A stretch of DNA of 64,000 nucleotides from Chloroflexota bacterium. Lineage in GTDB: Bacteria > Chloroflexota > UBA11872. The stretch's first letter is position 1. The number at the start of each line of letters is the position of its first letter. Positions 22,583-27,342 of this stretch are shown in pieces. The notes beneath the pieces were generated by a model. The model did not search any database and was not told the DNA's origin. It saw only the letters and a list, made by a program, of their open reading frames with translations. Where the stretch lies: contig CBDHGI010000006.1 in the NCBI GenBank assembly GCA_965263075.1, forward strand, positions 338,929 to 402,928, written 5' to 3'. A program made the position numbers and the translations under genes.

Positions 22583-22599
22583 TTCGCCGCCTTTCACGC

Positions 22600-22900
22600 C
22601 GGCACTTTCCTTATCCGAGGAAGGTGAATAAGGAGAGAACCGAGCTAGCGCGTGGCGCCTCGACCGGAAGACTCCCCACCCGAAGGAGAGGAGTGAGCGG
22701 AGAGACGTGAGGGGTGAGAGGGACAGGACGGTGGGGATGAGCTGGGGTTGGTTGCTCGGAAGACCCCTCACCCCCGGATCGAGTCCGGGGCAGGTTCTGC
22801 CTCTCCCCCAGGAGAGGTGAAAGGCGGCTCTCCCTGCGGACCTCTCCACTCCCGTTGACACCTGGGCTCGGGGGGAGCCGCCGGAGCCGACGTTGATTCT
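22600..22900. repeat. Intergenic repeat element, copy B: about 300-bp structured purine/pyrimidine-rich region between convergent genes
   Basis: Direct repeats CGGAAGAC(T/C)CC(C/T)CACCCC at about 22667 and 22757; CGGAGAGAC at 22698-22706; CCCTCACCCC at 22765-22774; inverted GTGAGGGGTGAGAGGG vs CCCTCACCCCC; CCTCTCCCCCAGGAGAGG hairpin. No ORF. Confidence 0.45.
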
Positions 22901-22910
22901 TGAACTGCCG

Positions 22911-23282
22911 CTACTCCGTGGCCTGGATAGCGACGCGTCCGCCTTTCCTGACGTCAATGCTCAGGTTATGGCTGTCGAGCAGGGACATGCCTACAAGAGG
23001 GTCTACGCCAACAGCCCCGGTCTCGACGTATCTCGATTGGCCGTTCCACAACACGGTGACGCCGTAAACGTCAAAGGCGGTCTCGCTGCCGTCGGCCAGA
23101 ACCGCCTCGCCATCACCCACGACAGGCAGGCCCAAGTCCGCCACCAGCATCGGCGGCAAGGTCAGGTAGCCGTTGAAGCCAGTATCAATCACGGCGTCGA
23201 CTTCCAGCGTCCGCCCCGCTGGGCCTTGCAAGGGAAGGGTTACGACGGCTTCGAGATTGGAGTTCACGAAGCCCTCGATCAC
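22911..23282 (-). CDS. Retropepsin-like clan AA aspartic protease (DTGF-type, TIGR03698-like)
   Basis: 123 aa with the active-site motif VIDTGFNGYLTLP (D-T-G-F), preceded by a hydrophobic beta region. It overlaps the upstream gene by 4 bp. Confidence 0.7.
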   Translation of the reverse strand: MIEGFVNSNLEAVVTLPLQGPAGRTLEVDAVIDTGFNGYLTLPPMLVADLGLPVVGDGEAVLADGSETAFDVYGVTVLWNGQSRYVETGAVGVDPLVGMSLLDSHNLSIDVRKGGRVAIQATE

Positions 23283-23590
23283 CCGGATCTCCGCAGGGAG
23301 CCGCCGCCGAAGTGATATAGCGTCCGGTGTCCGACCCGCATCAGCCAGATTTGGGCGTTCGGGCGCTGGTTGCGCAGACTGTCGGATGCGGCAATGGCAT
23401 TGGCGCCGAGGGCGTAGTCCCCGCTGTCCACGTCAATGGCGACGACCTCGCCAACATGGCCGGCCTCCACCTGCCGCTGGATGTCTCGCTGGTATATCGC
23501 CTTGCCCAAGCGGGCGATCTCATCCCGCGGGCGGCGTGGGGCGGTGGGCCGTGCCGCGTGCGCCGGCGTCGGGGTGTCCGAGTTTCTCAT
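23279..23590 (-). CDS. Small hypothetical protein translationally coupled to the retropepsin-like protease
   Basis: The ATG at 23590 (MRNSDTPTP...) is the first in-frame ATG within the listed ORF. The protein-like region is EIARLGKAIYQRDIQRQVEAGHVGEVVAIDVDSGDYALGANAIAASDSL. Its stop overlaps the protease start by 4 nt. Confidence 0.5.
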   Translation of the reverse strand: MRNSDTPTPAHAARPTAPRRPRDEIARLGKAIYQRDIQRQVEAGHVGEVVAIDVDSGDYALGANAIAASDSLRNQRPNAQIWLMRVGHRTLYHFGGGSLRRSG

Positions 23591-24059
23591 CCGTTCCCGT
23601 TTCAATGGCGCACTTCCATGGCGGCATCCTACCGACTTGCGGGAGGAACGACGGGCGAGCACTGCTGGGGGCCCACACCCTGAAAATCCTGGCCTTAGAC
23701 GCTGATCGGGTGGCCCTGCATGGGCTTCTGGGACCAACCGGTCCGTTGCACCCAATTTCCGACGCCGGGGCCGCGCGGTCGTTCGCGCCGTGGCCATGCG
23801 ACGCAGACAACGGGCGGATCAGTCCCCATTAGGTCTATGCGGGCTCAGGCGGCCCGTACGCCGATGGTAGCAGCCTCGCGACCCATGCCCTCACCCGCTG
23901 ACCCTAGCCATTCAGGACCGGACCTGTGACGCAATGCGGCGACAGGTGGGTTCAACCGACACTCAATGGCGAGGGTCAGCGGGTGAAGTTGCGCGCTGGA
24001 TTTACTAAATCTTGTACGATTACTCGCCTTGACCGTATACGTCAACACAGGAGATTGAA

Positions 24060-24128
24060 ATGGACTGGACTGCTATCTTCACTTCGGTAGTAACGGCGAC
24101 AGTCACAACGATTGCACTACGATTGTGA
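24060..24128 (+). CDS. Candidate 22-aa hydrophobic small peptide (MDWTAIFTSVVTATVTTIALRL)
   Basis: An ATG 7 nt downstream of AGGAG (acacAGGAGattgaaATG), inside the low-GC insert; the peptide is a single predicted TM helix. Too short for the ORF track. Confidence 0.35.
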   Translation: MDWTAIFTSVVTATVTTIALRL

Positions 24129-24175
24129 TTCCTCTTCTTCCGAATTCTCGTGAATCGTCATCCCGCCAACCTATT

Positions 24176-24547
24176 TCATGCAGGATACTTTTCTTGCCGA
24201 AGCTTCTCTATTAGCTCATCAGCCTTTCCTCTTTCGTATACTTGCGAATAAAAGCCAAGCGCTAAATCTACGACTTCTTGTACGTGCTTGGGCTGCGTTC
24301 CTTGGGATGCTGGCTTTAGACCTCCATCTTTGGTCGTCGCAAGCATAATAGGTGCAAAAACTCTTCCTTCAATTACATCAGTGCCTGCAAGTCGAGCCAA
24401 GTCCATAGTGAACTTCAGAACGTTGCGAGTCGCCCGTTTGGCAATCCAGGAGTCATTTGTCGCTAAAGCCCGCTGAAGCTTTGTTCGTATAAGGTTCGCA
24501 ACATCATCATAGGTGTATTCCGGTCGGGATGTGTCGTGATTCATCAA
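24176..24547 (-). CDS. Hypothetical protein (orphan, low-GC codon usage)
   Basis: 123 aa with balanced protein-like composition (MMNHDTSRPEYTYDDVANLIRTKLQRAL...) and a GAAGGG RBS. Its GC is far below the window mean. Confidence 0.55.
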   Translation of the reverse strand: MMNHDTSRPEYTYDDVANLIRTKLQRALATNDSWIAKRATRNVLKFTMDLARLAGTDVIEGRVFAPIMLATTKDGGLKPASQGTQPKHVQEVVDLALGFYSQVYERGKADELIEKLRQEKYPA

Positions 24548-24632
24548 AGACCCTTCTGTAGCCTATAACTCCATTAACGCTAAGCCATGTTCGGCTAGTC
24601 GTCAACTGAAAGAGTGGGCCATTCTGCCCGGC

Positions 24633-25722: not shown

Positions 25723-26097
25723 TTGGAGACGACTTTTGACATCGAACCCACACTGATGCGTCGGGCGCGCGACGAGGCGGCGCGCCGGGGGATCTCGGTG
25801 TCCGAGCTAGTGGCGGCGGGCTTGTGGCACGTGCTGGAGACCGAGGCTGCGGATACGGACGCGCCGGAGCCGAGAGTTGCCGAGGAATAGATGACCAAGG
25901 TATTGCCGCCGCTGCCCACCTGCAAGGGCGGTGGCTTTGTCGCGGATGTGGCGGACCGCAAGGCACTGGAAAGAGCAATGGCCGCGAACGACAACGACGG
26001 GGCATTGCCTCCGTTGCCGACGTGGCACGGTGGTGGTCCGGCGCTGGTGGATGTTGCCGACCGTCGGAAGCTCTACGAGGTGCTGGACGCCGACTGA
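25723..26097 (+). pseudogene. RHH (CopG-like) VapB-type antitoxin interrupted by an in-frame TAG (25888-25890), with a tandemly duplicated C-terminal toxin-binding motif
   Basis: N-terminal part TTFDIEPTLMRRARDEAARRGISVSELVAAGLWHVLE is a ribbon-helix-helix. The TAG is followed in frame by ATG and two copies of LPPLPTxxGGGxxxVDVADRxxL (compare the LP.F.GGG..GVDL.SN.AL..LD tails of RHH VapB antitoxins). It is translationally coupled to the PIN fragment. Confidence 0.55.
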
Positions 26098-26292
26098 GTG
26101 CTGGTTCTCGACACCAACGTCTTGTTCGACGCGGCTGTCGAGAGTTCGGAGTTTCACATCCGGCGCTCCGAGCGATTGGACCTGTGGCGGCGTGAACGGT
26201 CGTCCGTTCTGCTGACGTGGAACGTGTGCTATGGATTTCTGCGGATTACGACTCACCCGCGCGGCATGTTCTCGACCAGCCATTGGCCCTAA
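26098..26292 (+). pseudogene. Truncated PIN-domain toxin (VapC N-terminal 64 aa only)
   Basis: VLVLDTNVLFDAAVESSEFHIRRSERLDLW...CYGFLRITTHPRGMF carries the PIN N-terminal DTNVL motif and a GFLRIxTHPR motif. The stop at 26290 comes after 64 codons, whereas full PIN domains are about 130 aa. A convergent gene end lies 32 bp downstream. Confidence 0.65.
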
Positions 26293-26324
26293 GGGCTTCT
26301 CGGGAGGCGATCCCTTGGGCCGCG

Positions 26325-26537
26325 TCACGCCAACATCAAGCGCTCGCCCTTCGGTTCAGGGATGGGATCTCCAAATTCCCGCGCGGTATCAAGCCAAAGG
26401 TCCATTGCCTGGTTGACGTTCCGCAGGGCCGCCTGCTGGGTGTCGCCATGAGCCAGGCAGCCTGCGAGCTCGGGAACTTCGGCGACAAATACGCCGTCTT
26501 CCGTGCTCCAGTAGATGATGATTTCATACTGGTGCAT
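26325..26537 (-). CDS. HicB-like / UPF0150-family antitoxin (RNase H-like fold, short form)
   Basis: MHQYEIIIYWSTEDGVFVAEVPELAGCLAHGDTQQAALRNVNQAMDLWLD...GDPIPEP matches the HicB N-terminal domain. Confidence 0.7.
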   Translation of the reverse strand: MHQYEIIIYWSTEDGVFVAEVPELAGCLAHGDTQQAALRNVNQAMDLWLDTAREFGDPIPEPKGERLMLA

Positions 26538-26549
26538 CAGTCGCTCACC

Positions 26550-26777
26550 TCAAGCTGGCGCCATCCGCTCCTTGGCCAACTCGGCTGCGTAGTGCAGAGA
26601 CGCCTTCACCGCATCGGCGGAAACGGAGGGATAGCTCTCGACGATCTCATCTACGGTCAATCCCGCCGCGAGGTTGTCCAGGATGACGGTGACCATCACC
26701 CGGGTGCCTGCAATGCAAGCCTGGCCGTGACAGATATTCGGATCAACAGATATGTACTTGTGCCAGGTCATGATCAA
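26550..26777 (-). CDS. DUF433-domain protein
   Basis: [58 protein letters not shown] matches the DUF433 signature. It lies 12 bp upstream of the HicB-like gene on the same strand. Confidence 0.75.
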
Positions 26778-26999
26778 CCACCTTCCGGGTGACGATCACT
26801 CAATGTTGGCGCTTCGGGGTTCGGCGCGATGTCAGGTCCATGGGCAGTGTGCCAGCCGAGGTTGGTGAGCAAGTCAAGGGCGGCGCGCTCGACCGGCGAT
26901 TCAGTGATGGTGGTCATTTCCTCCGACCGCGCGACCACTGGGGATACGCTGACAATCGCGCTAGCAGGAATCCGCCCGTAACTCCGCCACGCTGACTGT

Positions 27000-27145
27000 C
27001 AGGCCCTTTTCGAGGCGAGGTTGATCGCAAGCGGACCGTCGCGGTCAAGCGCCAAGCGGGTCGGATTGTCGAGGATGTACTGGCGAATCTTCAGCAGGGA
27101 TGCGTCGCCGCGCACGACGTATTTGTAGTAGCTGCGCTGCCATAG
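27000..27145 (-). pseudogene. C-terminal remnant (48 codons) of an IS200-like/RAYT (Y1 HUH) transposase
   Basis: Manual translation gives LWQRSYYKYVVRGDASLLKIRQYILDNPTRLALDRDGPLAINLASKRA*, matching the conserved C-terminal WQRxYY(D/E)H(V/I)IR...L..I..YI..NP..W motif of DUF1568/RAYT-type transposases. An upstream stop follows immediately, and no N-terminal HUH region is in frame. Confidence 0.4.
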
Positions 27146-27342
27146 TCAGCCATGGAATGGCGGCCAGTTTCGCGTCTTGACCCCCGGGTGGATTCCACGG
27201 TGGTCAACGATTTATGCGTGTCGATCACATCGCCCAAGCCGACCCGTCTTGCCGTAAGGGCGCCCCTACCGGGATGCGGGATGGGCGGGGATGGGGGGTG
27301 AGGGGGTAGGCTCGCGGACGGACGTTTGGCGGGAGGGCTTCT

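Follow-up and report, generated by a model that had tools for sequence, protein, structure and literature searches.

The stretch of DNA analyzed here (the window, 64,000 nucleotides from a Chloroflexota bacterium, GC 0.644) carries a 4.76 kb interval between a Gfo/Idh/MocA gene and argG in which, as a preliminary description had stated, the coding pattern is unlike that of the surroundings. Nearly all of this interval, positions 22576-27302, is very probably the cargo of a strain-variable recombination and insertion hotspot situated between two conserved core genes. Taken together, its content makes it an ordinary islet, variable between strains, of toxin-antitoxin (TA), restriction-modification (R-M) and insertion sequence (IS) genes, and its only real lead is a gene pair specifying a retropepsin-like aspartic protease and a small partner protein.

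Relatives of the locus were collected by a search with ArgG, which retrieved six metagenome contigs with an identical protein and, as the nearest genomes, about 20 Chloroflexota metagenome-assembled genomes (MAGs) at 93-97% ArgG identity. The names of the relatives' isolates and the co-retrieved Poribacteria suggest that the host lineage is marine sponge-associated Chloroflexota. Comparison of these loci (cited by L numbers) showed that: i) the site is empty in six relatives (L010, L014, L068, L019, L024 and L025), in which the gap between Gfo and argG is only 26-92 bp; ii) the contigs L001, L005 and L006, with identical ArgG and flanks of 96-98% nucleotide identity, carry instead a 7.35-kb type III R-M system with Mod (PADLOC MTase_III, 1312 bits) and Res, plus DUF2283 and DUF1828, and a 360-aa open reading frame (ORF) in L004 is a Mod fragment; and iii) other TA sets occupy the site in L007, L008, L011 and L030. 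Homology with the alternative-cargo contig L001 stops at 22575/22576 and 27282/27283, that with the empty-site relatives is back at ~27296-27303, and a G-rich 20-mer (27283-27302) is common to all occupied alleles.

The modules of the cassette are distributed independently of one another. Among sister species, the protease-pair stretch (22771-23714) is found only in L007, duplicated there together with Gfo, and the vapBC stretch (25620-26265) only in L030. The HicB-like stretch (26248-26535) is shared with L011, L013, L021 and L026, and DUF433 with its upstream piece (26557-26887) with L008, L009, L018 and L030. Neither 23715-25619, which includes the IS block, nor 26888-27250 was matched in any other species compared. 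Variation extends to the population itself. L002 has the arrangement of the window and is identical to it; L003 has the same arrangement at 98.6-99.9% identity with two indels, one of 277 bp with 2-nt microhomology (extra in L003 at 24113/24114) and one in which 374 bp are replaced by 24 bp. L003 and all the other species are without 26884/8-27250/7, the piece bearing the stub of a REP-associated tyrosine transposase (RAYT). In L141 and L143, which come from further samples, at least the protease pair adjoins Gfo. The layered insertions into one hotspot that had been proposed are thus borne out by the empty sites, the alternative R-M cargo and the independently distributed modules; alignment with relatives found both empty sites and boundaries, and synteny of the segment does not extend to every relative.

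Table 1. Features of the Gfo-argG interval and its flanks (positions in the window; a dot marks features without strand)
Feature	Position	Strand	Basis or remark
Gfo/Idh/MocA gene	21401-22582	+	left core flank
Strain-variable cassette between Gfo/Idh/MocA and argG	22576-27302	.	homology breaks and empty-site comparison
Dispersed hairpin repeat, ~75-80 nt, like repetitive extragenic palindromes or miniature inverted-repeat transposable elements (REP/MITE-like)	22744-22823	+	copies in relatives
Clan AA (DTGF) retropepsin-like aspartic protease, 123 aa, intact	22911-23282	-	TIGR03698
Partner gene, 103 aa, intact, distantly DUF5678-like	23279-23590	-	length set by homologues
Long hairpin, 25-nt arms, 46-nt loop with inner stem-loop	23891-23986	.	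edge of low-GC block
22-codon ORF, stump of 107-aa gene	24060-24128	+	comparison with L003
123-aa ORF	24176-24547	-	GC at third codon positions (GC3) 0.41; travels with IS1595 transposases
IS1595-family transposase pseudogene	24633-25445	-	Pfam, three-frame reconstruction, L092 alignment
G-rich non-coding tract, right part = vapBC upstream region	25446-25716	+	GC skew +0.40
vapB (ribbon-helix-helix (RHH) plus C-terminal repeat), split by TAG	25717-26097	+	L030 comparison
vapC (PIN) N-terminal remnant, ~56 of 146 codons	26098-26265	+	PIN_3 0.0024, TIGR00028 3e-5
Phd/YefM-like antitoxin remnant, ~60 nt, frameshifted	26266-26324	-	match to L011 Phd-like ORF
HicB-like/UPF0150 gene, 70 aa, intact	26325-26537	-	PF21748 35.8 bits, PF15919 34.2 bits
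DUF433 (COG2442) antitoxin-type gene, intact	26550-26777	-	PF04255 80.3 bits
Type I hsdR 5' stub, 54 codons	26774-26938	-	HsdR N-terminus matches
RAYT C-terminal stub	27002-27145	-	NF047646 E 2.8e-4, weak
Conserved argG upstream region	27283-27342	+	alignment with relatives
argG	27343-28581	+	right core flank

Decay of the TA genes could be recognized because intact counterparts exist in L030, L008 and L011. Weak RHH and PIN N-terminal domain matches extend over 25717-26292 (+), the vapBC locus that had been described as decayed. In the window and in L003, a GGC codon of vapB is changed to an in-frame TAG (25888-25890); the L030 counterpart is a single 126-aa ORF. The vapC fragment scores 24.1 bits against a TIGR00028 cut-off of 73.6, compared with 74.3 bits for the full 146-aa homologue of L030, and homology to L030 stops at 26265. 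The adjoining phd remnant matches a Phd-like ORF (GQWL[IV]ENMPRG) that precedes a PIN gene in L011. The HicB-like gene is 88-89% identical in nucleotides to those of L011, L013, L021 and L026, and no HicA lies beside it: 12 nt separate it from DUF433, and on the other side the vapC and phd remnants leave no space for an ORF. DUF433/COG2442 is a PIN-associated antitoxin abundant in Chloroflexi, and DUF433-DUF5615 is a predicted TA system (Makarova et al., PMC2701414). L008 and L030 retain this pair, with a PIN-like DUF5615 of 117 aa (76.2 bits); in the window the DUF5615 toxin is absent, the next gene, 12 nt on, being HicB-like. The DUF433 and HicB-like genes had been taken for a convergent pair; both genes are there, but both lie on the minus strand, in tandem, and only the vapBC remnant is convergent with them. 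No complete VapBC, Phd-PIN, DUF433-DUF5615 or HicAB pair is present in the window.

Two further stubs lie between DUF433 and argG. Residues 8-48 of the hsdR stub match the N-termini of annotated HsdR proteins (best E 9e-5), and a type I R-M system therefore once occupied the Gfo-argG site. About 45 N-terminal codons are left, the helicase and nuclease domains being absent, and the 3' part of the stub is kept in seven relatives. The IS200-like/RAYT C-terminal remnant noticed earlier was found again as a weak match, covering profile positions 104-134 of 146 (31 positions) with 20.8 bits versus a cut-off of 80; Pfam Y1_Tnp gives E 0.21. It lies within a 363-bp piece, 26888-27250, that is private to this strain. 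The hsdR stub, the phd remnant and the ~96-nt long hairpin had not been listed in the preliminary description.

Composition is not uniform across the segment. Against a background of 500-bp windows (GC 0.648 +/- 0.029), the low-GC insert reported earlier is indeed sharp, and it resolves into two blocks, 23991-24610 (GC 0.466, z -6.2) and 24861-25445 (GC 0.497, z -5.1). A bump of GC 0.62 separates them because a frameshift fuses a small ORF to the transposase remnant there. The tetranucleotide correlation of 24000-25499 with the rest of the window is 0.225 (z -14.5), and the GC3 of the 123-aa ORF contrasts with values of 0.70-0.86 in all other genes. Only 23991-25445 (1.45 kb, IS1595-derived) is compositionally deviant; the protease pair, vapBC, the HicB-like gene and DUF433 are host-like. 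Having host-like GC and GC3, the TA-type modules therefore appear to circulate within the lineage.

The low-GC block is preceded by a non-coding stretch that had been put at ~350 bp and is in fact 469 bp (23591-24059). The 22-codon hydrophobic ORF that follows is present as described but is not a gene of its own. The 277 bp extra in L003 restore a 107-aa ORF (L003:5202-5525), predicted to be membrane-anchored, in which a hydrophobic helix at the N terminus precedes a Cys-rich region; no homology was found between this protein and the 85/123-aa zinc-ribbon protein of L092. The 123-aa gene, reported as an orphan, has just four homologues in 5.8 billion proteins, but its company is constant: L091 and L092 have a 120-aa homologue immediately after an intact 337-aa IS1595 transposase, the neighbor of a 187-aa homologue in L094 is a Zn_ribbon_IS1595 fragment, and every recovered context involves IS1595 transposase sequence. 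The unit of L091/L092 is collinear with ~24162-25428 of the window at 71% nucleotide identity. From these contexts and the collinearity with L092, the low-GC block is therefore best described as one IS1595-derived unit with a passenger ORF.

The transposase in this unit is a pseudogene, as had been stated. Positions 24633-25118 (-) encode the C-terminal end of DDE_Tnp_IS1595 (Pfam 1e-13; profile positions 95-152 of 153 in frame), upstream pieces continue to ~25445, the N-terminal ~110 codons and the zinc ribbon are missing, and at least two frameshifts are present. A small conserved ORF overlapping its 3' end is joined to it in frame. In L092 (5718-5912, corresponding to window ~24636-24790 (-)), this conserved small ORF (64 aa) overlaps the IS1595 3' end in another frame (…EAFDSFLTAILRTPPDSLPPVPDMPEDDEKE). 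The long hairpin at the edge of the block (~96 nt) folds with z -6.1 and -7.1, and a hairpin of the same geometry with other stem sequences (6392-6490, z -8.4) follows the ORF120 homologue of L092. The two have a 25-26-bp stem, a 46-47-nt loop and a common CCCTAGC/GCTAGGG core, the copies being ~71% identical. The 120-123-aa ORF and the long hairpin found with IS1595 transposases suggest that this IS family has an undescribed variant that carries a passenger. No convincing IS1595 terminal inverted repeats (TIRs) or target duplication were found in the window, nor any convincing termini in L092; an inverted repeat at 23730-23752 / 25493-25515 was considered as the IS ends and rejected, its 12-nt exact core being at chance level (E 0.84). 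The low-GC block gave no match to plasmids by blastn, and PADLOC and PHROGs searches of the small ORFs gave nothing beyond the HicB-like and DUF433 genes.

The G-rich tract, also noted previously, lies between this block and vapBC, and homology to L030 begins inside it, at 25620. It includes a number of GGGG runs and a pair of GGGGCGCC(T)NGGG repeats (25648-25671 and 25703-25726), and has predicted G-quadruplex potential.

A fill-and-decay process very probably accounts for this allele. In the ancestral state, argG probably came directly after Gfo. In this genus the gap is filled again and again, with type II TA pairs, type I and III R-M systems, IS elements and the protease pair; strains exchange such modules, presumably through homologous recombination in the conserved flanks, and modules also move from one islet to another. 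Point mutations, frameshifts, deletions and replacements then wear the modules down. The window allele is probably a late stage, in which vapBC, phd-PIN, hsdR, RAYT and IS1595 are dead modules and the compositionally foreign IS1595 fragment with its passenger ORF is a recent arrival. DUF433 and the HicB-like gene persist as solo antitoxin-type genes without toxins, perhaps kept as anti-addiction or regulatory genes. The clan AA protease with its coupled partner, which may act as a TA-like module, is the one intact module left.

Several points weigh against the hotspot explanation. No integrase, tRNA gene or target-site duplication marks an insertion mechanism at the site: domain, family-profile and PHROGs searches of the segment found no integrase, phage or conjugation genes, the only tRNA gene in the window is at 5750-5826, and no direct repeats or target-site duplication flank the segment. 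Most of the modules are host-like in composition, and "horizontal" here means exchange within the lineage. The intact small genes are predicted from sequence, and the short-read MAG loci may hold assembly errors, for example in the frameshifted genes of L005 and L006.

The preliminary description had placed an uncharacterized system in this segment. The expectation holds for the protease pair only, the rest being recognizable debris or solo antitoxin-type genes; domain searches bore out nearly all the gene assignments of the preliminary description, and neither protein of the pair matches a PADLOC model. The protease scores 65.5 bits against the TIGR03698 clan_AA_DTGF cut-off of 57.35, with no match in Pfam, and belongs to a family of 594 homologues. 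The partner family consists of 221 homologues of ~103 aa, none matching Pfam, and in a wider search of 3177 cluster representatives at E ≤ 1e-3, or 1050 at E ≤ 1e-10, again with no Pfam model. The window partner itself has no Pfam DUF5678 match; its best-scoring relative, the natural fusion protein P0345, reaches a sub-threshold 20.4 bits (cut-off 23.2). At the junction GTGA, the partner stop TGA overlaps the protease start GTG, and the two genes are predicted to be translationally coupled through this overlap, in line with the coupling described earlier.

That this pair is the key content of the segment, a new TA-like or defense module to which the rest is incidental, is a tentative reading, and one that would complement the hotspot explanation without contradicting it. 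A homodimeric protease would be the effector and the DUF5678-like partner its cognate inhibitor or regulator, with the partner's tail possibly acting as a pseudo-substrate. Conservation of the pair argues for such a unit. The 4-nt overlap of the window recurs on Nostoc plasmids, and among 44 JGI metagenome loci, 42 of them informative, the partner is directly followed by a protease homologue in 33, down to 35-45% identity. P0345 joins two partner domains to the protease, the only indirect support for the idea that one product would be toxic and the other would neutralize it by direct binding. Tandem partner domains, two or three, occur in some proteins (the P0245, P0246, P0272, P0345 and P0331 set), one of which may join a degenerate protease half to a partner domain. 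The family is widespread: its sequence clusters number more than 1000 and come from Chloroflexota, Cyanobacteria and further metagenomic lineages, and the catalytic D33-T34-G35 is invariant in an alignment of 22 protease sequences, cyanobacterial ones included.

The contexts of the pair are also typical of TA systems. Overlapping pairs are carried on cyanobacterial plasmids (Nostoc PCC 7120 pCC7120alpha, Tolypothrix and Trichormus), and in Nostoc sp. MS1 the pair separates pglZ from pglX in a BREX-1 locus (L090, plasmid pNSMS101, 250823-251460), which is broken also by an IS630 transposase. A genome with an empty Gfo-argG site has the pair ~720 kb off, in a TA/defense islet (M78/DUF4411, DUF2283, MazE-PIN), and the duplicated copy of L007 adds another such context. 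The neighbors of 19 metagenomic pairs are a mixture of housekeeping and defense genes with no recurrent third gene. Judged from these comparisons, the protease and its 103-aa partner form a conserved mobile two-gene module, sharing with type II TA systems two small coupled genes, mobility and many contexts. That it is an undescribed TA-like or defense-associated module with an aspartic protease as effector is possible but, on balance, rather doubtful.

Structure prediction bears on the partner mainly. The AlphaFold2 (AF2) model shows a helix-strand-strand-helix-strand core (residues 21-86) that is confident (core pLDDT >90) and novel-looking, with disordered ends; the C-terminal tail (RVGHRTLYHFGGSSLRR) is conserved yet disordered in the model, and no solved structural relative of the partner was found. 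Literature searches on retropepsin-based TA or defense modules and on DUF5678 found nothing on the pairing, in keeping with a new module. Near archaeal type III CRISPR loci, small retropepsin proteins have been listed as uncharacterized (PMC3973734). Against a TA or defense role, neither protein has a PADLOC model, no relatives of the protease were found on viral contigs, the partner fold is unlike any known antitoxin, and 9 of the 42 partners are solo. The AF2 model of the protease (pLDDT 44) is too poor for a fold search or for dimer and active-site geometry, and the protein gave no sequence matches to solved structures. A protease conserved together with its substrate, its chaperone or a pro-domain, without any role in addiction or defense, would explain the pairing equally well.

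It is very unlikely that one mobile element, be it a prophage, an integrative and conjugative element or a transposon, arrived in a single insertion and decayed to leave this segment. The cassette does have defined outer limits that are common to the alternative allele, it contains transposase fragments of IS1595 and RAYT, and the 23-nt inverted repeat mentioned above (83%) brackets the private block; but the exact core of that repeat is at chance level, the modules are found separately at the same site in different species, foreign composition is limited to 1.45 kb, and the segment has neither integrase, phage or conjugation genes nor flanking direct repeats. An assembly chimera of the MAG, which the metagenomic source and the abrupt GC changes might suggest, is hardly credible, since independent contigs, one of which is 2.9 Mb long, show the same arrangement in different samples at 98.6-100% identity.

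The stretch from Gfo to the protease gene (22583-22910) had been described as a 300-bp repeat-structured element. It is 328 bp long and does contain a dispersed hairpin repeat, but it has no tandem array of note, and its global RNA fold is not significant (z -1.1 and -1.75). Copies of the hairpin repeat were found in L011, L018 (two) and L026, and its core motif was counted 20 times across 13 Chloroflexota loci, in every case on the plus strand and in one orientation relative to argG. The layout is a core, GGTTGCNCGGAAGA(N)CCCTCA, a variable hairpin and then CCTCTCCCCCAGGAGAGG, with two alternative central hairpins at one position. This layout is represented in L008, L011, L017, L018, L021, L026 and L030. 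The Rfam whalefall-1 RNA was considered for the repeat and rejected: it scores 25.5 bits against a threshold of 37, the match being one hairpin plus GGGTGAGG.

Other observations concern the flanks and the relatives. The DUF429 region upstream of Gfo (20253-21351) is also variable, L003 differing in sequence there, and tandem DUF429-Gfo duplications occur in several relatives; the loci concerned are L009, L011, L013 and L007, the last with a duplication of Gfo plus the protease pair. The variable zone therefore reaches to the left of 22583-27342. In the island of L030, the argG promoter and first ~10 codons are present a second time at 8890-8978, with 84% identity to window 27283-27371, and have the vapBC module on one side and the DUF433-DUF5615 module on the other. 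This duplicate has the appearance of an insertion or recombination footprint at the argG 5' end; a search of the window segment for a copy of the argG 5' region or a target duplication found none. Such islets repeatedly contain small DUF2283 genes preceded by an unannotated partner (L001 5868-6855, L139 5796-6172), and the DUF1828 protein next to the type III Mod has a match to the PADLOC candidate PDC-M24B (1.7e-8). Elsewhere in the window, two pairs of ~150-nt direct repeats (53291-53599 and 54745-55053, 72-74% identity, 1454 bp spacing) are probably adjacent paralogous genes.

The segment as a whole matters little, except for its unusual degree of resolution, an empty site being known along with alternative alleles and an intact counterpart for each broken gene. 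Interest attaches first to the protease pair, as a large conserved mobile family whose partner has no Pfam model and on which no literature was found, and less so to the IS1595 passenger unit. Should the pair be a TA or defense module, its effector would be an aspartic protease, and no such module is described in the literature searched. Like the TIGR03698 AF_0612 family, the window protein is a 123-aa single domain with DTGF that scores above the cut-off; unlike described clan AA retropepsin-like proteins, it is paired with a DUF5678-like protein as a mobile module, a pairing undescribed in the literature found.

Members of the IS1595 family have an ISXO2-like DDE domain and an N-terminal zinc ribbon. 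The window copy keeps the C-terminal region, collinear with L091/L092, but differs from members of the family in being frameshifted and in lacking the zinc ribbon, the first ~110 codons and recognizable TIRs. The rare 120-123-aa ORF and the ~100-nt hairpin are not known from described IS1595 members. Homologous genes or fragments of all four TA families, VapBC, Phd-PIN, DUF433-DUF5615 and HicAB, are present, and intact counterparts occupy the same hotspot in sister species; unlike complete pairs of these families, the window vapB is stopped, vapC truncated and phd a 60-nt stub, and DUF5615 and HicA are absent. Variable islets rich in TA and R-M genes have been reported as enriched or typical in sponge symbionts (PMC5649159). 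The Gfo-argG segment differs from typical genomic islands in that no integrase, tRNA gene or recognizable att site was found, the cargo is mostly of native composition, and the allele is almost all debris and solo antitoxin-type genes. It resembles islets at fixed hotspots in its core-gene flanks, the empty site in relatives and the alternative cargo in conspecific strains, and it resembles such islets and defense islands in a cargo of TA, R-M and IS genes undergoing continued decay and replacement.

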